Shown: positions 8,198 to 49,321, numbered from the stretch's first letter. The stretch is 64,000 bases of DNA from Gammaproteobacteria bacterium (GCA_050740455.1 JBOIDF010000002.1:35642-99641); one strand, 5' to 3'. Numbers and translations: made by a program. The notes: generated by a model from the letters alone, not told the origin.

Positions 8198-8333
8198 TCA
8201 GAGCTTGTGAAAGAATCTGCTGCGCTCGGGATCTCGCGTGCCGGCGGTGCTCGGAATCCTCATGTATTTCAACATACACTCCGGTTCCTGCGCTCCGGCG
8301 GAAAGCGACCTCGCTTCGCTCGCGACGATTTTT

Positions 8334-36501: not shown

Positions 36502-37040
36502 AAATGTATCTACGGAACAGACAAAAGGGTGCGGCGATCTTCATCGCGCTCATCATGCTCTTGGTCATGACCATCATTGGGATCACGGCCTCGCAGACGA
36601 CCACGCTCGAAGAGAAAATGGCCGGGAATCTACGCGACCAGACACTCGCCTTACAAGCAGGCGAAGCGGTTCTGCGCTGGACGGAGACCTGGGTCGGGCA
36701 GCAAGTGAGTGAACCCACGTCGGTGGCAGCCTGTGGCTCGGGCTGTGACGATACGGTGTGGGTATTGAACAAGATCACGCCCGACCTGACCAGCGCGGCG
36801 CTGTGGTCCACCGCAAGCGTGCGTAGCAACTATACCGGGTTGCCGATCACCGGGCCCGGCAAGGTCGCGGCTCAGCCGAAGTCCGTGGTCGAAGAGCACA
36901 GTTTTATCAAAGACAGCCTGAACCAGGGCAAGCAGAATGATATTTCGGGCCAGATGTTCTACCGCCTCACCGCCAATGGCACCGGGGGCACCACGAGCGC
37001 CCAAGCCCTGCTGCAAAGCACCTATTCTCGCCGCTACTAG
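36498..37040 (+). CDS. pilX: Type IV pilus minor pilin PilX
   Basis: QKGAAIFIALIMLLVMTIIGI N-terminal hydrophobic segment. 180 aa. Position in the operon. Confidence 0.75.
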   Translation: MKMYLRNRQKGAAIFIALIMLLVMTIIGITASQTTTLEEKMAGNLRDQTLALQAGEAVLRWTETWVGQQVSEPTSVAACGSGCDDTVWVLNKITPDLTSAALWSTASVRSNYTGLPITGPGKVAAQPKSVVEEHSFIKDSLNQGKQNDISGQMFYRLTANGTGGTTSAQALLQSTYSRRY

Positions 37041-37116
37041 CGCGCCTAGAGCATCGAGTTGCAAAGCGCACTGGTATCTATAGGAAACCCATCATAGGAA
37101 CCGTCAAGTTTAGGAG

Positions 37117-40100
37117 ATGCCCATGAAATCGCTACGGAAAGTTCTACACACTATCGTTGTCGCTATCGCCGTTGTTTTTACGGGATTGAGCGATGTGACC
37201 CGGGCCGCCGATTTGAGCATAAGCAATGTACCGCTCTTTCTGGGCGGCAATGCGGCGCCCAACATCATGTTCACACTGGATGACTCCGGATCGATGCAGT
37301 TCGAGGTGCTGCCGGATGAATTGATCTACAAGGACATTCGATATGTCTTCCCGATCGGAAAGACGATCTATGGAGGCGGCAGCACCGACTATTATCGGGC
37401 GGGCGGAAGCACCGATATCGGTAAGAACTGCGGCTCCGGTACGGATTTTCATGCGGTCTGCGTTCCTGGATATGAAGATAACAACCTTTACAACTACAAG
37501 TACCGCTCGGTAAGGAACAACAAGTCCTATTACAACCCGGATGTGACCTACACGCCCTGGTCCCAACCGGATGGAACGACACTCTATCCCCCCGCGGACC
37601 CAGGCTGTGCATACCAAAATCCGTTCGATACCGCCGTCGGTTGCCGAGTTCTGACAGCCCTCAATGACGGAGCCACGAATACCGACAAAGACAGCTACGC
37701 TAAATGGCTGCGCAGAACGACCGCAGCTGTCCCCACGTACGAATGGAAGATCCAAAATTACGTGAATGCCCAGACGGGAACGGCGGGGTTCTGGCCGGCG
37801 ACCTATTTCAACTTTGATATTACCAACCTTAGTTGTGACCTCACCGTCGACGATCGCGATTGCTACGACAAGGTCGAGGTCAAGTACACTATCACGAGCT
37901 ATACGAGCCCGGGAGGTGTCGCCCGTAATTACAGCCAGGAGATGCAGAACTTCGCCAACTGGTACACCTACTATCGTTCGAGGGTCCTGCTCGCGCGGGC
38001 CGGCGCGGGCCGCGCGTTCGCCAGTCAATCAGGCGGCATGCGGGTCGGCTTCGCGGCTATCAACAAGGCGCCTGCAACCGTCGACGGCGCCACTTCCCCA
38101 GGCGCCCTGATCCGGGGTGTGCGGAGTTTTTCTGGAACCGATCGCACCAATTTCTTCAACGATCTTTATGGCCACGCGATCCCCACATCGGGCACGCCCT
38201 TGCGTCGCGCCCTGGACGATGTGGGCCAATACTTCAGCCGCACCGACAACAAAGGCCCCTGGGGTGCGTTTCCGGGCACCGGTGGCGGCACCGAGCTCGC
38301 CTGCCGCCAAAGCTATAACATCTTGATGACCGACGGTTACTGGAACGATGCCGCGGCGCCTACGCTCGGCGCGCAGGGAAACGTGGACAATACCGCCGGC
38401 CTTACCATCACCAACAACAGCAATCCGCCCGAACCGCCGAGCTATCAATATTCCCCTGTCGGTCCCTACAAGGACTCATGGGGCGATCCAAATCCCACTG
38501 ACGGTACACTTGCGGATGTGGCCATGTACTACTGGAACCACGATCTGAGGACTTTGCCGAACAAGGTACCCACCAACCCGGCGGATCCGGCTTTCTGGCA
38601 GCACATGGTGACTTTCACCGTCGGGCTCGGGTTGTCCGGTACATTGGATCCGGCGACTGATCTTCCGGCGTTGACGGCCGGAACCAAGACCTGGCCATTG
38701 CCTTGGAACAGCAATCCGCAAGGTATGGACCCACTTCCGCCAGCTAGTTGGCAAGAAGCATATAACCTCGACGACCTCTGGCACGCGGCAGTCAACGGCC
38801 GGGGGGAGTTCTTCAGCGCCTCGAATCCCGACGAGTTTGCCCAAGGCCTCTCTGCGTCACTCGCTAATATTTCAGGCCGATCGGGTGCCGCCTCGTCGAT
38901 CGCGCTGAATTCTACCTCTCTACGTGCCGGCAGCAGCGTCTATCAGGCGAAATTTAACAGCGCCGACTGGAGCGGGCAACTCCTGTCGATACCCATCCTA
39001 TCCGACGGCACGCTCGGCACTGCAGATTGGGATGCCGCCGATAAGCTGCCGGCCGCTAGCGCGCGCAAGATCGTGACCTTCAAGCCGTCGGCGCGTACGG
39101 GCGCACCGTTTAGCTGGACAGGCCTCGAAGCGTCGCAGCAAATTGAGCTTGAAAAGAATCCAGCGACGCTCCTCGCCGACGGGCTCGGCAGCCAACGCCT
39201 CGATTACCTGCGCGGCAAGGACGTGGCCGGAATGCGTCTCCGGTCGAAGAAGCTCGGCGATATCGTGCACTCTTCGCCGGCCTTCGTCGGTGCCCCGATC
39301 TTCCGCTATCCGGACACCTGGGCAAGCGGGGCGCCCGAGAACGGCGCTGCCGCTCCGTATTCTATGTTCAAATCCAGCAATAGTACTCGCAAGCCACTTG
39401 TTTATGCGGGGGCCAACGACGGCATGCTGCATGCCTTCGATGCTGATACCGGTCCAACGGCCGGGGAGGAAGTCTTTGCCTATGTTCCCGCGGCGGTCTA
39501 CAAGAACCTGAACCGGCTTACCAGCCTTACCTACGCGCATCGCTTCTTTGTGGACGGCGCGCCCACCATGGGCGATGCCTTCTTCGACGGGAGCTGGCAC
39601 ACGGTGCTGGTCGGGGGCTTACGCGCGGGCGGGCAGGCGATTTACGCCCTGGACATCACCGATCCGCCTGGTTCCTCGGACGCCGAGACCGACATCGCGG
39701 CCAAGGTGCTCTGGGAGTTCAACGACGTCGAGGGCCTACTAGCCAGCGATCCTGATTATGGCGACAAGGACCTCGGCGATACCTTCAGCGAGCCGAACAT
39801 CGTGCGCCTGCATAACGGTCAGTGGGCCGCCGTATTCGGCAACGGTTACAACAACACTAAGAGCGATGGTCTCCTGACGACGAGCACGACCGGCAACGCG
39901 GTCCTCTATATCGTCGATATTGCGACCGGCGAGCTCATCAAGAAGATCGATACCGGCGTCGGCAAAGCCCAAGACCCGAAAAATACTACGGCAGCCAACC
40001 AACTCCCCAACGGGCTCGCCACCCCGGCCCCTATCGATACCAACGGCGACTCCATCGTCGACTACATCTACGCGGGGGATCTCTTTGGCAACCTCTGGAA

Positions 40101-41037
40101 GTTCGACGTGAGTAGCTCTAACGAGAACTCGTGGCAGGTGCTCGGTCCCTCGGGCGGGCCGCTCTTCGTTGCCTGCGCCGGGACGGGTACCCAATGTACG
40201 ACGGCAGGAGCTAGCAACCTGCGCCAGCCGATCACGACCCGCCCTCAGGTGGGCCGCCATCCGACCAAGGCGAACGGCTTCATGGTGTACTTCGGCACCG
40301 GTAAATACATCGAGGGCCCGGATATTGATGCGAAGCCGACGGGCCAGACCACCCAGACCTTCTACGGCATCTGGGATGAGAATCTGAGCAGTCTGACGGC
40401 CTTCGATCGCACTAAGCTTCTCGAGCAGAAGATCGTCAAGGAGATCTCGCAAGGTTTCGACACCAGCACACCTCCTGACGGCACTGATGATGACTTCTTC
40501 GATCTGCGCGTCACCACCGATAATCCGATCGATTGGGACACCCCGCCGTCGTCCCCGCATAGGGGCTGGTACATGGATCTAATTAACACGGGAGAATCGC
40601 CCCTCGACAACGAAGGTGAGCGGCAGGTGACCGATTCTATCCTGAGAGATGGCCGGATCATCTTCACCACGCTCATCCCCTCCGCCGATCCCTGCGATTT
40701 CGGCGGCACCGGTTGGCTCATGGAGATCGATGCTAAGGACGGAAGCCGGCTGGAGTTTTCGCCCTTCGACTTGAATGCCGACGGTGAATTCGATGGCGAA
40801 GACCACGTGGATATCGATGGTGACGGGACCCCGGATCCGGTGCCCCCGGGCGGCAAGCAGTCCAAGGTCGGGATCCCCCCGACGCCCGGCGTGGTATCTG
40901 ACAGCAGCGATCCGAACAAGCCACCGAAGGAGCTGAAGATTACGAGCGGCTCCACGGGGAAGATCGAGGTTACCACCGAGAACCCCGGTTCCGGCAACGT
41001 CGGCCGCCGATCCTGGCGGGAACTGAACTTACAATAG
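37117..41037 (+). CDS. pilY1: Type IV pilus tip-associated adhesin PilY1
   Basis: 1306 aa. Signal peptide, an N-terminal vWA-like region and a C-terminal PilY1 beta-propeller region with a Ca-binding-like D-x-D-x-D motif (DTNGDSIVDY). Confidence 0.85.
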   Translation: MPMKSLRKVLHTIVVAIAVVFTGLSDVTRAADLSISNVPLFLGGNAAPNIMFTLDDSGSMQFEVLPDELIYKDIRYVFPIGKTIYGGGSTDYYRAGGSTDIGKNCGSGTDFHAVCVPGYEDNNLYNYKYRSVRNNKSYYNPDVTYTPWSQPDGTTLYPPADPGCAYQNPFDTAVGCRVLTALNDGATNTDKDSYAKWLRRTTAAVPTYEWKIQNYVNAQTGTAGFWPATYFNFDITNLSCDLTVDDRDCYDKVEVKYTITSYTSPGGVARNYSQEMQNFANWYTYYRSRVLLARAGAGRAFASQSGGMRVGFAAINKAPATVDGATSPGALIRGVRSFSGTDRTNFFNDLYGHAIPTSGTPLRRALDDVGQYFSRTDNKGPWGAFPGTGGGTELACRQSYNILMTDGYWNDAAAPTLGAQGNVDNTAGLTITNNSNPPEPPSYQYSPVGPYKDSWGDPNPTDGTLADVAMYYWNHDLRTLPNKVPTNPADPAFWQHMVTFTVGLGLSGTLDPATDLPALTAGTKTWPLPWNSNPQGMDPLPPASWQEAYNLDDLWHAAVNGRGEFFSASNPDEFAQGLSASLANISGRSGAASSIALNSTSLRAGSSVYQAKFNSADWSGQLLSIPILSDGTLGTADWDAADKLPAASARKIVTFKPSARTGAPFSWTGLEASQQIELEKNPATLLADGLGSQRLDYLRGKDVAGMRLRSKKLGDIVHSSPAFVGAPIFRYPDTWASGAPENGAAAPYSMFKSSNSTRKPLVYAGANDGMLHAFDADTGPTAGEEVFAYVPAAVYKNLNRLTSLTYAHRFFVDGAPTMGDAFFDGSWHTVLVGGLRAGGQAIYALDITDPPGSSDAETDIAAKVLWEFNDVEGLLASDPDYGDKDLGDTFSEPNIVRLHNGQWAAVFGNGYNNTKSDGLLTTSTTGNAVLYIVDIATGELIKKIDTGVGKAQDPKNTTAANQLPNGLATPAPIDTNGDSIVDYIYAGDLFGNLWKFDVSSSNENSWQVLGPSGGPLFVACAGTGTQCTTAGASNLRQPITTRPQVGRHPTKANGFMVYFGTGKYIEGPDIDAKPTGQTTQTFYGIWDENLSSLTAFDRTKLLEQKIVKEISQGFDTSTPPDGTDDDFFDLRVTTDNPIDWDTPPSSPHRGWYMDLINTGESPLDNEGERQVTDSILRDGRIIFTTLIPSADPCDFGGTGWLMEIDAKDGSRLEFSPFDLNADGEFDGEDHVDIDGDGTPDPVPPGGKQSKVGIPPTPGVVSDSSDPNKPPKELKITSGSTGKIEVTTENPGSGNVGRRSWRELNLQ

Positions 41038-41109
41038 TGTCCCTGAGGAAGCGGGCGGTCTTCGGACCGCCCGCTTTCTTTCCAAAGTCAATCCTTGAGA
41101 GGTTTATCC

Positions 41110-41583
41110 ATGAGCACGAGTTTGAATCGCATCCGCACAGTTTCGGGCTTTACGCTGATCGAGGTGATGATCGTCGTGGCGATCGTCGGCATCTTGTCGG
41201 CGATCGCTTATCCGTCATACCAGCAGCATGTGCGTTCATCCAGGCGCGCCGATGCCCAGGCGGCGCTCTTGGAGCTGGCACAAATCATGGAGCGGCGGTT
41301 TACTGAGAACAACGGTTATGACCTTGGCCTCGCCGGGGTAGTAGATGCCCCAGACAACTTGCCCTTTACACAGTCACCCAGGGACGGCACGGCGGTTTAC
41401 AATCTGACGCTCCTTGCAGTCGCGGCAAACACCTTTACGCTGCAAGCGGCGCCCATAGCAGGAGGGCCTCAAGTCGGTGACGGCAACATGCAACTCGCGG
41501 AGACGGGAGCTAAGTTCTGGGACCGCACTGGCGACGGTGACTTTGGCGACACCGACGAGGACTGCTGGCGAAAGTACTGCTGA
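41110..41583 (+). CDS. pilE: Type IV pilus minor pilin PilE
   Basis: GFTLIEVMIVVAIVGILSAIAYPSYQ prepilin N-terminus. About 157 aa. Confidence 0.8.
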   Translation: MSTSLNRIRTVSGFTLIEVMIVVAIVGILSAIAYPSYQQHVRSSRRADAQAALLELAQIMERRFTENNGYDLGLAGVVDAPDNLPFTQSPRDGTAVYNLTLLAVAANTFTLQAAPIAGGPQVGDGNMQLAETGAKFWDRTGDGDFGDTDEDCWRKYC

Positions 41584-41728
41584 TGTTTTGACGCCGATCT
41601 TCTCCGGTGTTATTGTCCGCGAATCTTTTTTCTTACGAACAGCTCCGCGCCTAGGCTGAGGTACTGATGAAGGGGTGCCGCGCCCGAACGCAAGCGAACT
41701 TCATCGATAGGCGTCTTTGCGAGTGACC

Positions 41729-41977
41729 CTACGTTTTCTCGCCGGGGCGACGATCCAGACAGGCGATCTCGCCCAGCACCGACCCCGGCTCGAGGTCGCG
41801 CAGGACCATCAGCTCTCCCTCGGGCCCCTCGTGGACGACCTGCAGCATCCCCTGTTTGACCAGAACCACGTCTTCGCCCGGATCGCCCTCCTTCCACAGC
41901 CACGACCCGGCTTCGATCTCGGACTCCTGCCCCAGCTCCGAAAGCAAGGCACGCAGCGCGGCAGCGGGCTCAGCCAA
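41729..41977 (-). pseudogene. Remnant of a cyclic-nucleotide-binding domain gene
   Basis: 82-aa ORF covering only the beta-roll and phosphate-binding cassette (GSVLGEIACL...RRP), then stopping. No associated effector domain. Confidence 0.4.
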
Positions 41978-42130
41978 GCGAATCCGGGATCCGTTCCGCG
42001 GAGGCCGACGCGCAGGAAGCGCGGAGGCCGCCTCCCCGACAGCGGCGCCGACGCGCGGCCAGCGTAGCGAATAGGTATTTCAAAGGCCCTTTTTCCTCAG
42101 GAGCGAAGATACGACTGGACCAGTAGGCTG

Positions 42131-42394
42131 TCAAACGTGTGTATTCGGCCACAGTTTGCCGGTAACGAATAGGCGTTCATTCCGCGCGTCGTAAGCGATC
42201 CCGTTCCGGACATCGACAGGGGTTGCTCTGTCGGCTTCACTGAGCAAGCCGCGTAAATCAATCCAGCCCACGACTTGACCAGTTTGTGGTGCGATCCTGG
42301 CTATCCGATCGGTCTTCCATACGTTCGCAAACAGTTCGCCGCGGACAGTTTCGAGCTCGTTCAATCGCGTGACCGGCGTCGCGCCCTCGCGCAC
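42131..42394 (-). pseudogene. C-terminal fragment of a glutaminyl-peptide cyclotransferase (third, diverged copy)
   Basis: 87 aa, about 85% identical to the C-termini of the full genes at 43439..44143 and 44659..45492. No N-terminal portion. Confidence 0.6.
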
Positions 42395-42483
42395 CGTTAG
42401 GCGGTCGGCTTCGGCATAGGGGTTACAAAATCCGCTTCCAAAGTTATACTTTGGTGTAATTTAACGAATCGCGAGGTCTCATC

Positions 42484-42741
42484 ATGCCAATTGCAACCCT
42501 TCGCAGTGTAGGCGGTTCGGTTGTCATGGCCATCCCCAAGCGCATATTGGATTTGGTGCATTTGCAATCCGGTTCGCAAGTGAATATTGATGTCCAGGAC
42601 GGAAAACTGGTGGTTGAGCCGAAGAAAAAACCACGCTATACCCTCGCCGAACTGATGGCGCAGTGCGACCTGTCGCAACCTATGAGCACAGAAGAAAGAG
42701 AATGGCTTGACACACCCGATGTCGGCGCAGAGGTACCCTGA
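42484..42741 (+). CDS. MazE/PemI/ChpS-family antitoxin (SpoVT/AbrB fold)
   Basis: 85 aa. RSVGGSVVMAIPKRILDLVHLQSGSQVNIDV...YTLAELMAQCD closely parallels ChpS/PemI. Overlaps the toxin gene start. Confidence 0.75.
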   Translation: MPIATLRSVGGSVVMAIPKRILDLVHLQSGSQVNIDVQDGKLVVEPKKKPRYTLAELMAQCDLSQPMSTEEREWLDTPDVGAEVP

Positions 42742-43079
42742 TGCGCATACCCGGCTGGGGCGAGATTTGGCACGTTAATCTGAACCCAGTCGCGGGCAAG
42801 GAACAACAAGGCTTGAGGCCGGTTCTGGTGGTGTCCGACAAAGAATTTAACCGGTCCGGACTGGTACTTGTTTGTCCGGTCACACAGGGCGGCAATCAGG
42901 CGCGGTTTTCCGGGTTCGCCGTGTCATTGATGAACACAGGCACGGAAACGCAAGGGGTTGTGATGTGCAATCAACCGAGGACTATCGACTATGCTGCACG
43001 CGCGGCAAGGTTCATAGAGGACGCGCCGGATTACGTGATCGATGATGTCTTGGCCCGGCTGCAAACCCTTCTGGAGTAA
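42741..43079 (+). CDS. MazF/PemK/ChpB-family endoribonuclease toxin
   Basis: 112 aa. GEIWHVNLNPVAGKEQQGLRPVLVVS...LVCPVTQGGNQARFSGFAVSL matches PemK/ChpB. Local GC is clearly lower than the surroundings. Confidence 0.8.
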   Translation: MRIPGWGEIWHVNLNPVAGKEQQGLRPVLVVSDKEFNRSGLVLVCPVTQGGNQARFSGFAVSLMNTGTETQGVVMCNQPRTIDYAARAARFIEDAPDYVIDDVLARLQTLLE

Positions 43080-43094
43080 CCGAGTTCTACAGAG

Positions 43095-43301
43095 GTGGTC
43101 ATCGATGACAAAACAATCCAGTCCGCAGTGGCCCGGCTGGTGTCTGCCGCAACGTCCCCCAGCCAGGTGATCCTGTTCGGCTTTTACGCACTAGGCACGG
43201 CCGATGAGGGCTCAGATCTCGATCTGCTAGTCATCGAGCGGGAAATACCCAACAAGGCTGATGAATACACAGCTCCGCGCCGGAGAAAAGACGGCCGGTG
43301 A
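43095..43301 (+). pseudogene. Truncated minimal nucleotidyltransferase (Pol-beta superfamily, MNT-like)
   Basis: 68 aa with ILFGFYALGTADEGSDLDLLVI (GS-x-D-x-D). Ends at a duplication junction, so it is about two-thirds of a normal MNT. Confidence 0.5.
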
Positions 43302-43306
43302 ACTAG
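43280..43306. repeat. Direct repeat junction CCGGAGAAAAGACGGCCGGTGAACTAG (copy 1; copy 2 at 44636..44662)
   Basis: Identical 27-mer, extended to about 35 bp with one mismatch, immediately 3' of each full glutaminyl-cyclase copy. It marks a tandem-duplication boundary. Confidence 0.8.
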
Positions 43307-43438
43307 GGAGGCTCTGAATAAGTTCCTAATTTTCCAAGCGCGTCATTCCCGCGAAAGCAGGTATCCAGGATTTACGCCGGTTTCCTGGATGCCCGCTTCC
43401 GCGGGCATGACGAAAGAGGGTCTTATTTCAGAGTTTCC
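43307..43438. repeat. MITE-like insertion with terminal inverted repeats and a central 30-bp imperfect palindrome
   Basis: Present only in copy A, between the junction repeat and the QC stop. TIRs GGCTCTGAATAAG ... CTTATTTCAGAG. Core palindrome CGTCATTCCCGCGAAAGCAGGTATCCAGGA-N12-TCCTGGATGCCCGCTTCCGCGGGCATGACG. Confidence 0.6.
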
Positions 43439-44143
43439 CTACCGCCGGGGGACAAGCTTGATCTCGAAAAGCTTCGGCCATAGTTTGCCGGTAACGAACA
43501 GGCGGTCATTGCGCGCGTCGTAAGCGATCCCGTTCAGGACATCGATGCCCGTTGCTCTGCCGGCCTCACTGAGCAACCCGCGCAAATCAATCCAGCCCGT
43601 GACTTGACCCGTTTGTAGCGAGATCCTGGCTATCCGATCGGTCTTCCAGACATTGGCATACAGTTCGCCGCGGACAGTTTCGAGCTCGTTCAATCGAGTG
43701 ACCGGCGTCGCGCCCTCGCGCACCGTCAGGCGGCCTGTCTCACGAAACGTAGTTGCATCGAGGAACCGCAGCGTTGCCGTGCCGTCGCTCATGATGAGCC
43801 GCTTACCATCGTGGGTGATCCCCCAACCTTGGCCGGAATAATTGAACATCCGCTTGACTTGAAAATTCATCCGCTCGTATATGAACCCGAGCTTCGAGGT
43901 CCAGGTCAACTGCACGAGATCGGGGCCCCAGCTTGTCAGCCCCTCTCCGAAGTGCTCACGGGATCGTGCGGTCTGCCGTAGCACCCTGCCCGTTTCTAAT
44001 TCGACTTTCCGGAGCGTCGAACGGCCGTTCACCCCCGTGCTTTCGTAGAGGAATCCGTCAACGTAGGTCAAGCCCTGCGTAAAGGCATTGCGATCGTGAG
44101 GATAGACCCACACGACCTCGGGTGTACGGGTTGCCGCTCTCAT
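43439..44143 (-). CDS. Glutaminyl-peptide cyclotransferase (glutamine cyclotransferase), N-terminally truncated copy A
   Basis: 234 aa, over 95% identical to copy B across the beta-propeller body. Lacks the signal peptide, and homology breaks exactly at CACGACCTCG. Possibly a pseudogene. Confidence 0.65.
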   Translation of the reverse strand: MRAATRTPEVVWVYPHDRNAFTQGLTYVDGFLYESTGVNGRSTLRKVELETGRVLRQTARSREHFGEGLTSWGPDLVQLTWTSKLGFIYERMNFQVKRMFNYSGQGWGITHDGKRLIMSDGTATLRFLDATTFRETGRLTVREGATPVTRLNELETVRGELYANVWKTDRIARISLQTGQVTGWIDLRGLLSEAGRATGIDVLNGIAYDARNDRLFVTGKLWPKLFEIKLVPRR

Positions 44144-44317
44144 CGAGTTGGGCGTCGTTGAAGAGGGGGCTGAGCTTGACTGTCATGGGAAGATCCTATT
44201 TTGGGCCAGGCGGCGCCTGGCGTATAATCATGGGAGCCTGGAATTTCCCAGGCGGGGCGAGTACCCGAGCGCCATCGAAGATGGCCGGACCCGGAGGTCG
44301 AAAGTCAAGAAGGAACG

Positions 44318-44551
44318 ATGGCCACGATGATCAATGAGCTCTACGATGCGCTCCGCAAGGCAGGCGTTGATGAAGATATCGCACGCAAGGCCGCGCAAGC
44401 TGTGCTGGGAGCCGAGGAAAAAGATCAGCTCGTCACCAAGGATTATTTACGCGCCGAGATGGAAGCGCTCAAGTCAGATCTAATCAAATGGAACGTCGGG
44501 GCGATGGCCGTCCTTACCGCCGTCTTCGGCGCGCTGGTGAAGCTGCTATGA
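44318..44551 (+). CDS. DUF1640-family small coiled-coil protein with C-terminal TM helix
   Basis: 77 aa. TKDYLRAEMEALKSDLIKWNVGAMAVLTAVFGALVKLL matches the DUF1640 C-terminal pattern. Lies between the two QC copies. Confidence 0.5.
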   Translation: MATMINELYDALRKAGVDEDIARKAAQAVLGAEEKDQLVTKDYLRAEMEALKSDLIKWNVGAMAVLTAVFGALVKLL

Positions 44552-44635
44552 CTGCGGATCAGCCGAGTCGAAATGCGGCTAGGCGCCATCGAGGCGCATT
44601 TTGAGCAGCGTTGAGTCGCGCTTGGCCGCTCCGCC

Positions 44636-44662
44636 CCGGAGAAAAGACGGCCGGTGAACTAG
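44636..44662. repeat. Direct repeat junction, copy 2
   Basis: See 43280..43306. Confidence 0.8.
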
Positions 44663-45492
44663 TGCCGGAGGACAAGCTTGATTTCGAAAAGCTTCGGCCA
44701 CAGTTTGCCGGTAACGAACAGGCGGTCATTGCGCGCGTCGTAAGCGATCCCGTTCAGGACATCGATGCCCGTTGCTCTGCCGGCATCACTGAGCAACCCG
44801 CGCAAATCAATCCAGCCCGTGACTTGACCCGTTTGTAGCGAGATCCTGGCTATCCGATCGGTCTTCCAGACATTGGCATACAGTTCGCCGCGGACAGTTT
44901 CGAGCTCGTTCAATCGAGTGACCGGCGTCGCGCCCTCGCGCACCGTCAGGCGGCCTGTCTCACGAAACGTAGTTGCATCGAGGAACCGCAGCGTTGCCGT
45001 GCCGTCGCTCATGATGATCCGCTTACCATCGTGGGTGATCCCCCAACCTTCGCCGGAATAATTGAAGGTCCGCTTGACTTGAAAATTCATCCGCTCGTAT
45101 ATGAACCCGAGCTTCGAGGTCCAGGTCAACTGCACGAGATCGGGGCCCCAGCTTGTCAGCCCCTCTCCGAAGTGCTCACGGGACAGTGCGGTCTGCCGTA
45201 GCACCCTGCCCGTTTCTAATTCGACTTTCCGGAGCGTCGAACGGCCGTTCACCCCCGTGCTTTCGTAGAGGAAACCGTCAACGTAGGTCAAGCCCTGCGT
45301 AAAGGCATTGCGATCGTGAGGATAGACGCGCACGACCTCGTACCCATGCGTGGGCGCGCGCTGGTTCACAAAGCCCCGCTCTAACGAGGAAGATGTAGTT
45401 ACGATGAGCGGAAAACCTAGCGCTAGCACCGCAAGAGCGATCACATGATTTCGAGAGCCCAAGACGTTACGGCTGGAATGCGTTTCATTCAT
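44659..45492 (-). CDS. Glutaminyl-peptide cyclotransferase, full-length secreted copy B
   Basis: 277 aa with a signal peptide/TM (VIALAVLALGFPLIV). Plant/bacterial-type QC beta-propeller family. Confidence 0.75.
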   Translation of the reverse strand: MNETHSSRNVLGSRNHVIALAVLALGFPLIVTTSSSLERGFVNQRAPTHGYEVVRVYPHDRNAFTQGLTYVDGFLYESTGVNGRSTLRKVELETGRVLRQTALSREHFGEGLTSWGPDLVQLTWTSKLGFIYERMNFQVKRTFNYSGEGWGITHDGKRIIMSDGTATLRFLDATTFRETGRLTVREGATPVTRLNELETVRGELYANVWKTDRIARISLQTGQVTGWIDLRGLLSDAGRATGIDVLNGIAYDARNDRLFVTGKLWPKLFEIKLVLRH

Positions 45493-45517
45493 TGAAAAGA
45501 TGCGGACTGGCGGCGTG

Positions 45518-47029
45518 TTAAGAAGCTGCCACCGATCCTACGTATACACAGGCCAGCGCGAAGTAAACCACGAAGCTGAGCAGCAACAACACCTGTGAGG
45601 TACGGCTCGGACGCGCCCATTGCGGTAATTCCGGGGATAGGTAGCGATAGTTCAAATAATACAGGGCTATCGGGAAAATCACGGTCCCGATGAATCCAAT
45701 CACGGCGCTCGTGAGGATTAAAGGGCCTGGCGCATCGAGCAGCATGGTCAACGACGTGACTATTGTAAGTACTCCTAAGAAAACATAGTAGAGATAGCGC
45801 ATCTCGTAGCGCCGCGCCTTCGGAAACAGCACATGGACAATGTCGGCTTGAATGCGGCTCACCGCATCGGCCGTCGCCAACCAGGTATCCGTTAGAAACG
45901 CCGCGGCAATGATGAGAAATAAGACGCGCCCTACCTCACCCCAGCTCACCTCGAAAAATCGGCTCTGCACCACCGCCAGTTCGTACCCTTCGGGCACCAA
46001 GCCTTGAGGAAACAATAGCGCGTAGGCGAGAAGACAGGTCATCAGTGTGGTCAACAGGTTGCCGATGATTCCGACGGAGACATCAGCACGCAGGAAGCGG
46101 CGCCAGGATCGCCACCGCCGTGCGTTCTCGGGTGCGCTTTCGGGAAGATTGCCGTCCTGGCTGACGACTTCTGGTTTACCCGCGAGCGGTCCGGTGATTC
46201 TCCCCATGTGCACGGCCATCCCGCTGCCCTTATCCCGCAACCAATAGGAATAAAACAACGCCCAAAAACCGCCGAGCCCGGCGAAACTGACGGCCGTGAG
46301 AAGCTTCGTCGAATCCCGCGGATCCCAGGATCTCGGCATCGGGCCTGTCGATCCATAAAGTCCTGGCAGGAACTCAGGAATCGATTTTACCACGTCAGCT
46401 TGTGTGCAAGCCCAGAGCAAGCCAAAAACGGTCACGGCCGCCACCGCTTTCATGAACCGTTCGATGAAGATGTAGATGACGCCGCTTGAGAGGAGGGCGA
46501 TGAGGAAGACGGCGATCGAGACATACCCCCAGAAAAGAGCTTGACCGCGTTGCGTCCAGCCCTTGGGAAAATCGGCGAGCGCCGCGATCGCCGTGCCTCC
46601 CGCGCTTGCGAAGGCGCCGAACCAGAGGAACGACAGCGTCATCAGCAACCACAGAAAGATGCCAAGACCGCGGTGGAGACGGATAAACCCGTGGAAAATA
46701 CTCTCTCCGGTCAATAGGGTGTAACGTCCGATCTCGATGTTGAGCGGGTATTGCAGGAGGCAGGCGGGAATCAACACCCACAGAAAGGTTAAACCGTATT
46801 TTGCGATGATGTAAGGCCACCAGATCAGCTCGCCGCTCCCCTGCGCGAGCGCCATCCACACGACGCCGGGTCCAAGCGCTGCCCACCAGCCGGGAAACGG
46901 CGGTAACGGTCTACGGCCGTAGCACCTGCCGGCGTGGCCATCGGCGCCGAAGAGATCCGAAGCGCGCACGGCCGGCGTCGTAGCTACCAATATTCTAGGC
47001 GGGAGGCGCCGACCGCTTCCAAGGCTCAA
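45518..47029 (-). CDS. Polytopic membrane transporter, Nramp/MntH-related
   Basis: About 11-12 TM segments. N-terminal LGPGVVWMALAQGSGELIW...AKYGLTFLWVLIPACLLQ parallels the Nramp TM1-TM2 region, but the DPGN signature is replaced by GSGE. The true start is probably internal. Confidence 0.45.
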   Translation of the reverse strand: MSLGSGRRLPPRILVATTPAVRASDLFGADGHAGRCYGRRPLPPFPGWWAALGPGVVWMALAQGSGELIWWPYIIAKYGLTFLWVLIPACLLQYPLNIEIGRYTLLTGESIFHGFIRLHRGLGIFLWLLMTLSFLWFGAFASAGGTAIAALADFPKGWTQRGQALFWGYVSIAVFLIALLSSGVIYIFIERFMKAVAAVTVFGLLWACTQADVVKSIPEFLPGLYGSTGPMPRSWDPRDSTKLLTAVSFAGLGGFWALFYSYWLRDKGSGMAVHMGRITGPLAGKPEVVSQDGNLPESAPENARRWRSWRRFLRADVSVGIIGNLLTTLMTCLLAYALLFPQGLVPEGYELAVVQSRFFEVSWGEVGRVLFLIIAAAFLTDTWLATADAVSRIQADIVHVLFPKARRYEMRYLYYVFLGVLTIVTSLTMLLDAPGPLILTSAVIGFIGTVIFPIALYYLNYRYLSPELPQWARPSRTSQVLLLLSFVVYFALACVYVGSVAAS

Positions 47030-47615
47030 GCGCCTCTATCCCCGCATACCAACGCCGGATTTCGGTATGCGGTGCCATCGGGTAAGCGGCCGCTTCGGCG
47101 AGCGCGAGCGGAGCGCCTACGGAATAATCGGCTAGAGTCGTGGATTTACCGGCCAACCACGTTCGTCCCATGAGGTGATTGTCGAGAACGCTGGCAAAAC
47201 GATGGAAGCGCTCTTCTGCCTTTTTGAGCTCCGCCGGATCAGGGCAGCCGAGGTTCAGAAATCTCTTTACTAGATGTTCGTAAATGTAAATCCCGCACGC
47301 ACTGCCGAAATGCGCGAGCCCCCAACACTGCCAACGGCTGATGTCGGCTTGCGCCTTGGCATCAGCGGGCCAAAGCGTCGATCCGGGCTTCTTTGAACAA
47401 AGGTACTGCATGATGGCGTTTGATTCCCATAACACGAAATCCCCGTCAACCAGGGTGGGAATCATGTGATTGGGGTTCAATTGCAAAAACTCGGGCTTCA
47501 TCTGCTGACCGCTCGAAAGATCCACGGTTTCCAGCTCGCAGTCGAGGCCTAGGTGATAAATGACCGCAAGTACACGCCGCGAATTCGGGGAGACTGGAAA
47601 ATGATACAGTTTCAT
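46995..47615 (-). CDS. Glutathione S-transferase
   Basis: 206 aa. N-terminal thioredoxin-like GST domain (MKLYHFPVSPNSRRV...IPTLVDGDFVLWESNAIMQYL) and a C-terminal helical domain. Confidence 0.8.
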   Translation of the reverse strand: MKLYHFPVSPNSRRVLAVIYHLGLDCELETVDLSSGQQMKPEFLQLNPNHMIPTLVDGDFVLWESNAIMQYLCSKKPGSTLWPADAKAQADISRWQCWGLAHFGSACGIYIYEHLVKRFLNLGCPDPAELKKAEERFHRFASVLDNHLMGRTWLAGKSTTLADYSVGAPLALAEAAAYPMAPHTEIRRWYAGIEALEPWKRSAPPA

Positions 47616-47655
47616 GGACCACCTCTTGCTGCTGTTAGTGCCGCCATCCTGGATT

Positions 47656-48291
47656 TCAACGCTCCGAAACGCCCGCCAACTCGTTCCATTTATTCAACAC
47701 TGCGCAAAAAAGATCCGCCGTGCGCTCGGCATCGTAGATCGCGGTATGCGCTTCGGCATCATCCCAATCCAAGCCTGCCGCTTGGACCGCCCGCGATAAA
47801 ACCGTCTGGCCGACGGCCAGGCCCCCGAGGGTCGCGGTATCGAAGGTGCTGAACGAGTGAAACGGGTTGCGCTTGATACCCGTCCGTGCGACCGCCGCTT
47901 TGATAAAGGCAAGATCAAAGGAGGGGTTGTGTCCCACCAAGATCGCCCGAGTGCAGCCCGTCTTAGTGACCGCCTGACGTACAAACTCGAAAATACTCTC
48001 TAAGGCCTCGTGCTCGGGCACGGCAAAGCGGAACGGGTGGTGCGGATCGATCCCCGTAAACTTCAAGGAAGCCTGATTGAGATGAGCGCCCGGGAACGGT
48101 TGTACATGACAGGCGACCGTCTTTTCGCGCCGCCACTCGCCTCTCTCGTCGCTCATTACCGCCACGGCGGCGATCTCCAGCAAAGCATTGGTCGCCGGAT
48201 CGAAACCACCGGTTTCCACATCCACAACGACGGGCAAGAAGCCACGGAAACGCGACGCCATCAGGCGCCTGGATCGCGTGTCGCTACTCAT
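47656..48291 (-). CDS. rnt: Ribonuclease T
   Basis: DEDDh exonuclease motifs (VVVDVETGGFD, GHNPSFDLAFI, HTAIYDAERTADLF). About 211 aa. Confidence 0.85.
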   Translation of the reverse strand: MSSDTRSRRLMASRFRGFLPVVVDVETGGFDPATNALLEIAAVAVMSDERGEWRREKTVACHVQPFPGAHLNQASLKFTGIDPHHPFRFAVPEHEALESIFEFVRQAVTKTGCTRAILVGHNPSFDLAFIKAAVARTGIKRNPFHSFSTFDTATLGGLAVGQTVLSRAVQAAGLDWDDAEAHTAIYDAERTADLFCAVLNKWNELAGVSER

Positions 48292-49321
48292 GCGTCACCA
48301 GAGTCCAGTCACAGGCCGCTCCGGCCCGAAAGGGTATTAGCTCATCATTTCCGTATGGGTATTTATGTGGGACGGTCATGGGCGCCCGGCGGAGCGTAAG
48401 CTTCTCGCTCGTCCTCGGCAATCCGTAAAACGCCGCACCGTGGCCGCTCGCGAATCCATCGAGGCGATCCATCCTCCCCGCCTCATCGAAGACTTCCGCG
48501 TAAAGCTCCAAGGCCGCGTGCGCGGTATAAATCCCGGCACATCCGCAGGCCCGCTCCTTGGCCGCACGCGCGTGCGGCGCGCTGTCGGTGCCGAGAAAAA
48601 ACTTCGGGTTGGCACTGGTCGCGGCCCGCACCAATGCCCGCCGGTCTTCCTCGGTCTTGAGCAAGGGCAAACAATAATGATGGGGTTGCAGGCCGCCCTG
48701 AAACAAGGCATTGCGGTTGAGCAGCAAATGATGCGCGGTGATCGTGGCGGCCAAGGATGCGGGGCCGGTGCGAACGTACTCGACCGCCGCGCGCGTCGTA
48801 ATGTGCTCCAACACCAGCTTGAGACCGGGAAACCGCCGGATGATCTCGGCCAATACCCGTTCGATAAAAACACGCTCGCGGTCGAAAACATCCACTGCGG
48901 GTTCGACGACCTCGCCGTGCAGGAGCAAGGGCATGCCGAGTTTCTCAAGCTCCGCGAGCACCGGATACACCTTGCGGATGTCGGCCACGCCGCAGTTCGA
49001 ATGAGTCGTCGCCCCGGCCGGGTAGTATTTTACCGCTACTACATGGCCGCTTAGCTTGGCCTTTCGGATCTCCTCGATACCGGTCTCCTCGGTGAGATAG
49101 AGCGTCATGAGCGGCTCGAAGCGCAGGCCGCGAGGCAGTGCATCAAGGATGCGCGCGCGGTAGGCCAAGGCCGCGGCCGTGGAAGTGACGGGCGGGTCGA
49201 GATTCGGCATCACCACGGCACGCGAGAAACGCATCGCGGTGTGCGGCAATACGTTCGCCATCCACGGTCCGTCCCGCAGGTGAACGTGCAGATCATCGGG
49301 TTTTCTAATGCTTACTTCCAT
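48284..49321 (-). CDS. pyrC: Dihydroorotase (type II, homodimeric)
   Basis: KPDDLHVHLRDG metal-binding N-terminus. 345 aa. Confidence 0.9.
   Translation of the reverse strand: MEVSIRKPDDLHVHLRDGPWMANVLPHTAMRFSRAVVMPNLDPPVTSTAAALAYRARILDALPRGLRFEPLMTLYLTEETGIEEIRKAKLSGHVVAVKYYPAGATTHSNCGVADIRKVYPVLAELEKLGMPLLLHGEVVEPAVDVFDRERVFIERVLAEIIRRFPGLKLVLEHITTRAAVEYVRTGPASLAATITAHHLLLNRNALFQGGLQPHHYCLPLLKTEEDRRALVRAATSANPKFFLGTDSAPHARAAKERACGCAGIYTAHAALELYAEVFDEAGRMDRLDGFASGHGAAFYGLPRTSEKLTLRRAPMTVPHKYPYGNDELIPFRAGAACDWTLVTHE

Follow-up and report, generated by a model that had tools for sequence, protein, structure and literature searches.

A probable old and decaying accessory islet between pilE and a glutaminyl cyclase gene in an uncultured soil gammaproteobacterium

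Comparison with described systems

The closest named concept for the locus described here is the neisserial minimal mobile element (PMC3898611), although the match is incomplete. The locus belongs to a 64-kb stretch of DNA (the window, whose positions serve as coordinates throughout) from an uncultured soil gammaproteobacterium, the source being probably a metagenome-assembled genome. It consists of an islet of about 2975 bp (41653-44627) located between the minor-pilin gene pilE and a full-length glutaminyl cyclase (QC) gene, referred to as copy B. Within the islet, two further QC sequences, a mazEF toxin-antitoxin (TA) pair, gene remnants and a small DUF1640-like gene lie side by side. We consider, with a probability of roughly 0.78, that the pilE-QC site carries an old, decaying accessory islet and not a functional multi-gene system.

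Like a minimal mobile element, the islet is small, varies between strains, occupies a fixed place in the chromosome and has no mobility genes of its own. Its host has type IV pilus genes, including one for a ComP_DUS-type minor pilin, its cargo includes a TA pair, and an empty allele exists in the population. Indeed, the content of the pilE-QC site differs between strains, with empty, window, L085 and L177-group alleles. Unlike in minimal mobile elements, these alleles mostly appear as deletion derivatives of one old islet instead of alternative whole-gene cassettes, no unrelated alternative cassette being seen at the site in the few relatives available, and one flank of the islet (pilE/pilY1) is itself hypervariable.

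The TA pair resembles type II systems of the MazEF/ChpBS type, with an AbrB-type antitoxin gene followed by an overlapping PemK/MazF toxin gene that reaches the ChpB equivalog cut-off and, as for chromosomal MazEF/ChpBS, the module lies in accessory DNA. This likeness is one of genes, the toxin gene is frameshifted in some relatives and no defence match was obtained for the pair with PADLOC. The N-terminal 46 residues of another islet product resemble the MntA-type nucleotidyltransferases (MNT) of MNT-HEPN (MntA/HepT) type VII TA systems. Unlike in these systems, the islet MNT is a fragment with a decayed Gly-Ser motif and no HEPN gene on its 3' side. Finally, the islet shares a direct local duplication, unrelated filler at the joint and little or no microhomology with the scars of template switching or of homology-facilitated illegitimate recombination (HFIR, PMC3240628), and as in HFIR a homologous anchor (QC-Nramp) is found on one side only. 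By contrast, classical HFIR replaces recipient DNA and does not itself duplicate the anchor; the mechanism proposed for the islet is deduced from scars.

The locus thus compared displays ordinary genome plasticity at a previously undescribed place and does not constitute a new system. It offers a small, clean example of an intergenic site gaining, then eroding, accessory DNA in an uncultured soil bacterium, in which a gene was duplicated locally, a chromosomal gene was captured from elsewhere, a TA pair is present and several microhomology deletions arose independently across strains.

Alleles of the pilE-QC site

The nearest genomes are those of uncultured soil Gammaproteobacteria and few relatives are available; a metagenome scan with QC yielded one close relative only (L089). 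In this metagenome contig and in L001, the site is empty: pilY1-pilE is followed by ~95 bp and then by a convergent QC gene, with nothing between. Since window positions 41652 and 44628 map near each other (~10 bp apart) in both L001 and L089, 41653-44627 is an insertion, and the alignments indicate that the ancestral state is pilE, ~95 bp, QC. In the window, pilY1 (37117-41037, + strand) lies upstream of pilE (41095-41583, +), whose product carries ComP_DUS plus N_methyl domains. Positions 41584..41652, 3' of pilE, align colinearly with L001 and L089 and represent ancestral intergenic DNA, namely the left half of the spacer that natively separates pilE from QC. In these two relatives, the counterpart of this segment continues straight into a 35-bp QC-downstream sequence.

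This 35-bp sequence occurs twice in the window, with 34 of 35 positions identical. The first copy (43272-43306) includes a QC stop codon and is homologous to the native flank in L001/L089, whereas the second (44628-44662) is the native DNA 3' of QC copy B and abuts the stop codon of B; comparison with the empty site indicates that the repeat is the ancestral QC-downstream sequence. An earlier note on this DNA had described a repeat of 27-35 bp bounding the 3' ends of both QC copies. This holds for B, whose stop codon it adjoins, but not for the islet copy A, where a 132-bp insert splits the repeat from the stop codon. Neither this insert nor a 12-bp direct repeat, CAGCTCCGCGCC (41641-41652 and 43270-43281), had been noticed. 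The 12-bp pair, identified from the sequence and the native-flank alignment, brackets the whole left block of the islet.

The window allele is also found outside the window, in contigs of other assemblies retrieved through exact protein matches. Thus, L081 (GCA_975305705.1) is 100% identical over 37000-43706, its end lying within copy A, the Logan assembly L082 spans 42369-43380, and L083 (GCA_050740415.1) is 99.76% identical over 43981-48500, across the junction between copy A and the DUF1640 module and into copy B. The left junction of copy A (MNT/35-bp/hairpin/QC-3') is present in L081 and L082 and the right one (QC-5'|DUF1640) in L083. Because both junctions unique to copy A occur in independent assemblies, the duplication is not an assembly artefact, the alternative that the earlier note had itself raised; contig breaks inside copy A are the usual behaviour of short-read assemblers at a 98% repeat.

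Two further islet alleles were identified. In L085 (GCA_050740375.1), the left part comprises pilE, the native flank with the 35-bp sequence, a hairpin element with a related core, a 436-bp QC 3' fragment and mazEF, and the right part runs from a shorter MNT fragment (up to 43232) through 13 bp of QC, the DUF1640 module and the 35-bp sequence to a full QC gene; nearly all of copy A is missing. In the third allele (L177-L182, L086 and L087), mazEF is followed by 42 bp holding only the first 27 bp of the MNT open reading frame (ORF), after which 21 bp of QC lead through the DUF1640 module to QC, again without copy A. On the left of mazEF, L178-L180 have a long cNMP-GGDEF gene with no QC fragment between, and L189 is uninformative for the left border of this allele, its contig stopping at the GGDEF stop codon. 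The L085 and L177-group forms are independent deletions of most of copy A. The variable mosaic built by repeated recombination or duplication, as proposed earlier, is borne out by these differing structures and by the recurrence of the window-allele junctions in separate assemblies; the comparison among relatives that had been suggested thus revealed an empty site, a shorter allele and a third allele.

The junction CACGACCTCG|GGTGTACGG between copy A and the DUF1640 module is common to all islet-bearing lineages, in the form of QC vestiges of 13 bp in L085 and 21 bp in L086, L087 and L177-L182. As every islet-bearing relative shares it, this junction is old. Between lineages, identity reaches 96-97% for mazEF and 93-96% for the DUF1640 module (93-97% for the islet blocks together), compared with 90-94% for QC, 93-95% for Nramp and 94-96% for rnt in the flanks. 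Being about as diverged as its flanks, the islet is about as old as the lineage split. The QC gene of L089, with its empty site, is nevertheless closer to copy B (94%) than that of L085 (90%), which would fit islet loss or allele replacement by homologous recombination.

In the more distant relatives L002 and L003, the gene that comes after QC is a different, FimT-like pilin gene, so that the pilus side of the site is itself rearranged. An inverted pilus operon was rejected for these two, as the FimT-like gene is only 28-44% identical and belongs to another pilin cluster.

Gene content of the islet

Gene calls are based on an ORF list together with Pfam and NCBIfam profile scans, which recovered all the islet elements named in the earlier note, each in its place. 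Of the three QC sequences, only copy B has both a full catalytic domain and a predicted export signal (beta-propeller-type QC, PF05096). Copy B (44659-45492, -) encodes 277 aa with a hydrophobic N-terminus, covers positions 18-249 of 249 of the Glu_cyclase_2 profile (E 1.4e-97), resembles bacterial QCs of solved structure (3nol, E 1.5e-79; 3mbr, E 4.1e-77), and is syntenic across all relatives in the order QC-Nramp-rnt. It is presumably the resident functional, secreted enzyme.

Copy A (43439-44143, -; 234 aa, Glu_cyclase_2 positions 23-249) has no signal peptide. Its homology to B extends over 43439-44112, i.e. residues 52-277 of B and almost the whole crystallised domain; the ungapped alignment of 674 nt (43439-44112 against 44659-45332) shows 15 differences (97.8% identity) and neither a stop codon nor a frameshift. 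As stated earlier, homology breaks inside the coding region, right after CACGACCTCG (44112 / 45332). The first 8 codons of copy A, including the ATG at 44143, derive from the DUF1640 module. That a signal-less cytoplasmic copy A, or added QC dosage, was selected as useful would agree with this acquired ATG and with the intact ORF over residues 52-277 of B, an intactness that is nonetheless expected from the low divergence to B alone. Such selection is improbable: no Shine-Dalgarno-like sequence is evident upon reading the sequence upstream of the ATG, derived non-synonymous changes are more numerous in copy A than in B, and nearly all of copy A was deleted twice independently in relatives. Copy A would instead be a young pseudogene.

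The short QC 3' fragment (42144..42409, -), ~265 bp long and truncated at both ends, covers Glu_cyclase_2 positions 163-244 of 249 (E 1e-31). Its ORF (42131-42394, -) encodes 87 aa, a C-terminal piece that ends in foreign codons. The fragment is ~90% identical to copies A and B (261 bp) and to the QC genes of relatives, and is missing from L177-L182. A foreign lineage was rejected for it, as the 81% identity given by a repeat search included non-homologous flanks, the true value being ~90% to all. The two QC copies of L085 share 93.5% identity over the same 261 bp. Because A and B are 97.8% identical although the two copies of L085 reach only 93.5%, A and B have seemingly been partly homogenised by gene conversion since the duplication; a more recent re-duplication could also account for their similarity. 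The three QC paralogues in 3 kb of the earlier note are therefore three QC sequences indeed, but correspond to one working gene plus two duplication scars, and the duplication of A and B is real without being strictly tandem, since the 515-bp DUF1640 module sits between them.

The 132-bp insertion at the stop codon of copy A (43307-43438), flanked by CTAG and CTAC, resembles a miniature inverted-repeat transposable element (MITE). A long, imperfect palindrome, it has inverted repeats at its ends and is predicted to fold into a DNA hairpin (-37.3 kcal/mol, z = -7.07). It is absent from copy B and from L001/L089 and is present as a single copy in the window. A related hairpin core (92% over 72 nt) is found in L085, with the same CTAG, at its left QC fragment. 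Of the features expected for a MITE, inverted repeats and a hairpin are thus present, with one copy in the window and the related core in L085.

Both genes of the TA pair are intact in the window. The mazE/chpS-type antitoxin gene (42484-42741, +; 85 aa) matches PF04014 (E 1.3e-7) and the NCBIfam MazE/ChpS models, and its stop codon overlaps the start of the mazF/chpB-type toxin gene (ATGA, 42738-42741). The latter (42741-43079, +; 112 aa) matches PF02452 (PemK; E 2.2e-28, profile positions 3-109 of 109) and scores 130.3 bits with the ChpB equivalog NF007320, for a cut-off of 129. A promoter-like site found by consensus scan 5' of mazE (42422..42454, +), conserved in L085 and L178, overlaps the palindrome CCAAAGTTATACTTTGG, a possible MazE operator. 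The same 1-nt deletion frameshifts mazF in L178, L180 and L182. In the window, mazEF looks functional on its coding sequence and may slow islet loss. Its lower GC content had been pointed out before; it is indeed lower, but the difference is modest (0.53-0.57 against about 0.58-0.62).

Downstream of mazF, the MntA-type nucleotidyltransferase remnant (43095-43301, +; 68 aa) retains positions 13-45 of 93 of NTP_transf_2 and scores 19.7 bits with the MntA model, for a cut-off of 60. The final ~10 codons of this remnant fall within the 12-bp and 35-bp repeats. The Gly-Ser motif reads LFGSYARG in L085 but LFGFYALG in the window. The truncation point differs by lineage, lying at 43232 in L085 and at 43121 in L086, L087 and L177-L182, and elsewhere in the window allele. 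No HEPN partner gene is found 3' of the remnant, where the 35-bp repeat and the hairpin element lead on to QC copy A.

On the left side of the islet lies a copy, with an internal deletion, of a diguanylate cyclase gene with cNMP_binding and GGDEF domains (41683..42068, -; Pfam cNMP_binding E 1.3e-11); this copy has kept an ORF of 82 aa (41729-41977, -) covering positions 3-61 of 89 of the cNMP_binding profile. The parent gene encodes a 311-aa protein and resides elsewhere in L184/L185, flanked by a flavin reductase gene and a FAD-binding/KAS III cluster. Of this gene, the window keeps ~319 bp from the 5' end and the DNA upstream (~94% identical to L184/L185) and the last ~59-74 bp (93-98% identity, L185/L184). 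A 652-bp internal deletion joins both pieces at a 7-bp microhomology, ACGATCC, with a frameshift of the ORF. L178-L180 keep the long cNMP-GGDEF gene adjoining mazEF, with at least 297 codons before it runs off the contig end. As the gene has a home locus in L184/L185 and the window copy is deleted, the block is a captured copy of an ordinary chromosomal gene, since decayed.

The 515-bp DUF1640 module (44113..44627, +) separates QC copies A and B. Its DUF1640-like gene (44318-44551, +) encodes 77 aa with a C-terminal hydrophobic helix and scores 20.2 bits with PF07798, below the 33.5 cut-off, and homologues of the protein carry PF07798 or are named DUF1640. A perfect TATAAT (44223-44228) stands 90 bp 5' of the gene among CCAGG-type palindromes, and the gene looks functional. 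These inverted repeats surround the TATAAT at 44207-44260, include CCAGGCGgCGCCTGG and CCTGGAATTTCCCAGG, and may be candidate operator sites. The module also bears the start of a truncated leftward ORF, with an ATG at 44186 (MTVKLSPLFND...). This ORF start, MTVKLSPLFNDAQLDESGNPYT (44058-44186, -), points away from the DUF1640 gene and is interrupted at the joint with QC copy A; no NCBIfam model matched it. In L086 and L087, a 13-bp deletion changes the stretch 44058-44186.

Elsewhere, nucleotide homology to the DUF1640-like gene ends exactly at the ORF borders in unrelated contexts, with 96% identity in L183 (3919-4154) and 82% in L169-L176. In L172-L174, such a gene edges another variable islet, 3' of formyltransferase/hydrolase (FTR/GXGXG) genes, whose cargo includes a ParE-HTH and a SIR2 + ORC/CDC6-like pair. 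Two NCBI records label a DUF1640-like protein of 74-77 aa 'integrase'. Small genes of this type are often paired between housekeeping genes in other bacteria (L186 5216-5808; L187 1267-2285); a constant partner gene or array was rejected, the contexts being heterogeneous.

The working parts of the locus would be limited to QC copy B, mazEF and the DUF1640 gene, whereas both incomplete QC sequences, copy A and the short fragment, as well as the MNT and cNMP-GGDEF remnants are likely pseudogenes. Annotation should be read with care here: of the three 'glutaminyl cyclases', two would not be genuine genes, and the same would hold for the cNMP protein and the nucleotidyltransferase.

Origin of the islet and its surroundings

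The pieces of the islet were probably joined by illegitimate recombination at a short, selectively neutral intergenic target. In the islet-bearing lineages, a 5'-truncated QC copy is fused to the DUF1640 module, followed by the native 35-bp flank and the intact QC. Such a QC duplication with a 515-bp filler would fit a replication template switch and would fit equally a one-sided, homology-anchored integration of incoming DNA (HFIR, PMC3240628). The mazEF-MNT block and the cNMP-GGDEF copy, the latter from another chromosomal locus, also occur in the islet. The lineages then diverged through independent small deletions at 0-7 bp of microhomology, the range over all junctions, those other than the cNMP-GGDEF one having 0-4 bp; one lineage additionally gained a hairpin-element insertion. 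The alleles, including the empty one, were presumably exchanged or regenerated by homologous recombination via conserved flanks or direct QC repeats.

Several observations sit less well with an old islet in decay. The order of events is not fully reconstructable and no single deletion-only path links the three alleles. Between the GGDEF copy and mazEF, the window has the QC fragment where L178-L180 have at least 62 bp of other sequence, and L085 carries a longer QC fragment left of mazEF. Copy A is still an intact ORF. The sequences compared are all metagenome assemblies, in which single-base frameshifts may include errors. Lastly, three junctions fall within ~15 nt at the foot of a hairpin of the native spacer, CTCCGCGCCGGAG.

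Searches for mobility functions gave little. No integrase or transposase gene is listed in the gene tables of L081 and L083 covering about 34.7-52.5 kb, the 64-kb window has no tRNA gene, and no sequence similar to 41653-44627 was found among plasmids and phages by blastn. A plasmid or phage origin was rejected on the latter ground, and a tRNA-linked island for want of a tRNA gene in the window. An integrase-mediated genomic island does not fit either, with no integrase, no tRNA and QC repeats that end at variable positions. As regards an integron cassette array, the gene tables of L081 and L083 list no intI gene near the islet, no formal attC model having been run, and the sole hairpin element of the islet sits at the QC stop codon and not at block borders. 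An Rfam scan of 41000-46000 gave no family at gathering score; the two matches obtained are at chance level and both lie upstream of pilE, at 41046-41138.

Site-specific accretion would place the attachment site at the QC 3' end or terminator hairpin and the recombinase gene elsewhere, with tandem integration of small elements, each restoring the QC 3' end and leaving a partial QC copy, like tRNA-targeting islands. The layout is indeed that of a tandem island, with the full gene at one end and direct-orientation 3' fragments at the far end of each block, and the junctions cluster within ~15 nt beside the native-spacer hairpin. This origin is nevertheless unlikely, as the QC fragments stop at different internal positions (about 265, 436 and 674 bp) without a single crossover point, neither an integrase within ~10 kb on either side nor a tRNA gene was found, part of an ordinary chromosomal gene makes up one 'cargo', and junction microhomology is only 0-7 bp.

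The clustering at CTCCGCGCCGGAG might point to a site where breaks or recombination occur preferentially. Through a trans-acting recombinase or fork stalling, short blocks of genes, some of them parts of ordinary chromosomal genes, would have been captured there repeatedly. The DUF1640 gene may mark such sites, given that its nucleotide homology ends at the ORF borders in unrelated contexts and that it also edges another variable TA/SIR2 islet. If so, the hairpin would be an integron-like accretion point without a local integrase. We regard this as a long shot, and since the whole permissive target is only ~95 bp, the clustering was not taken as evidence of a specific site. A mosaic made of mis-joined reads from co-existing strains can be dismissed as very improbable: the probable metagenomic source and the breaks of short-read assemblies in copy A (L081 ending at 43706, L083 starting at 43981) would favour it, but both copy-A-unique junctions come from separate assemblies of other samples, A and B differ at 15 positions, and diverged relatives hold vestiges of the same junction.

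Decay of an old islet also bears on the suggestion, made in the earlier note, of a hotspot where defence cargo accumulates. PADLOC returned weak matches only, namely PycC for the cNMP fragment (20.4 bits) and PDC-S09/PDC-M05A for the MNT fragment, and none for intact genes; with matches restricted to two gene remnants, no defence system is present. The islet changes mainly by deletion and decay, with no visible ongoing accumulation, and the suggestion is not supported.

The surroundings of the islet vary as well. The pilY1/pilE region (37117-41583) has 69-91% nucleotide identity to relatives, compared with 93-96% for the flanking core genes, and L085 has a different pilE allele (134 aa); this divergence fits diversifying selection or replacement of minor-pilin genes. 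On the other side, copy B adjoins a gene for a 503-aa metal transporter of the Nramp family (45518-47029, -; NCBIfam Nramp_1, E 1.5e-65, no Pfam match), whose predicted start overlaps a glutathione S-transferase (GST) gene and which has 479-491 aa in the calls of other assemblies. The GST gene, between Nramp and rnt (46995-47615, -), provides a second presence/absence polymorphism: L002, L003 and L083 have it, and ~560-700 bp are missing from L001 (~47017-47574) and from L084, L085, L177 and L178 (~46923-47650). Farther away, a sequence of ~105 bp (8200-8304) recurs at non-syntenic positions with 92-94% identity in L001 (20358-20462) and L002 (742-850), and is probably a small dispersed repeat.

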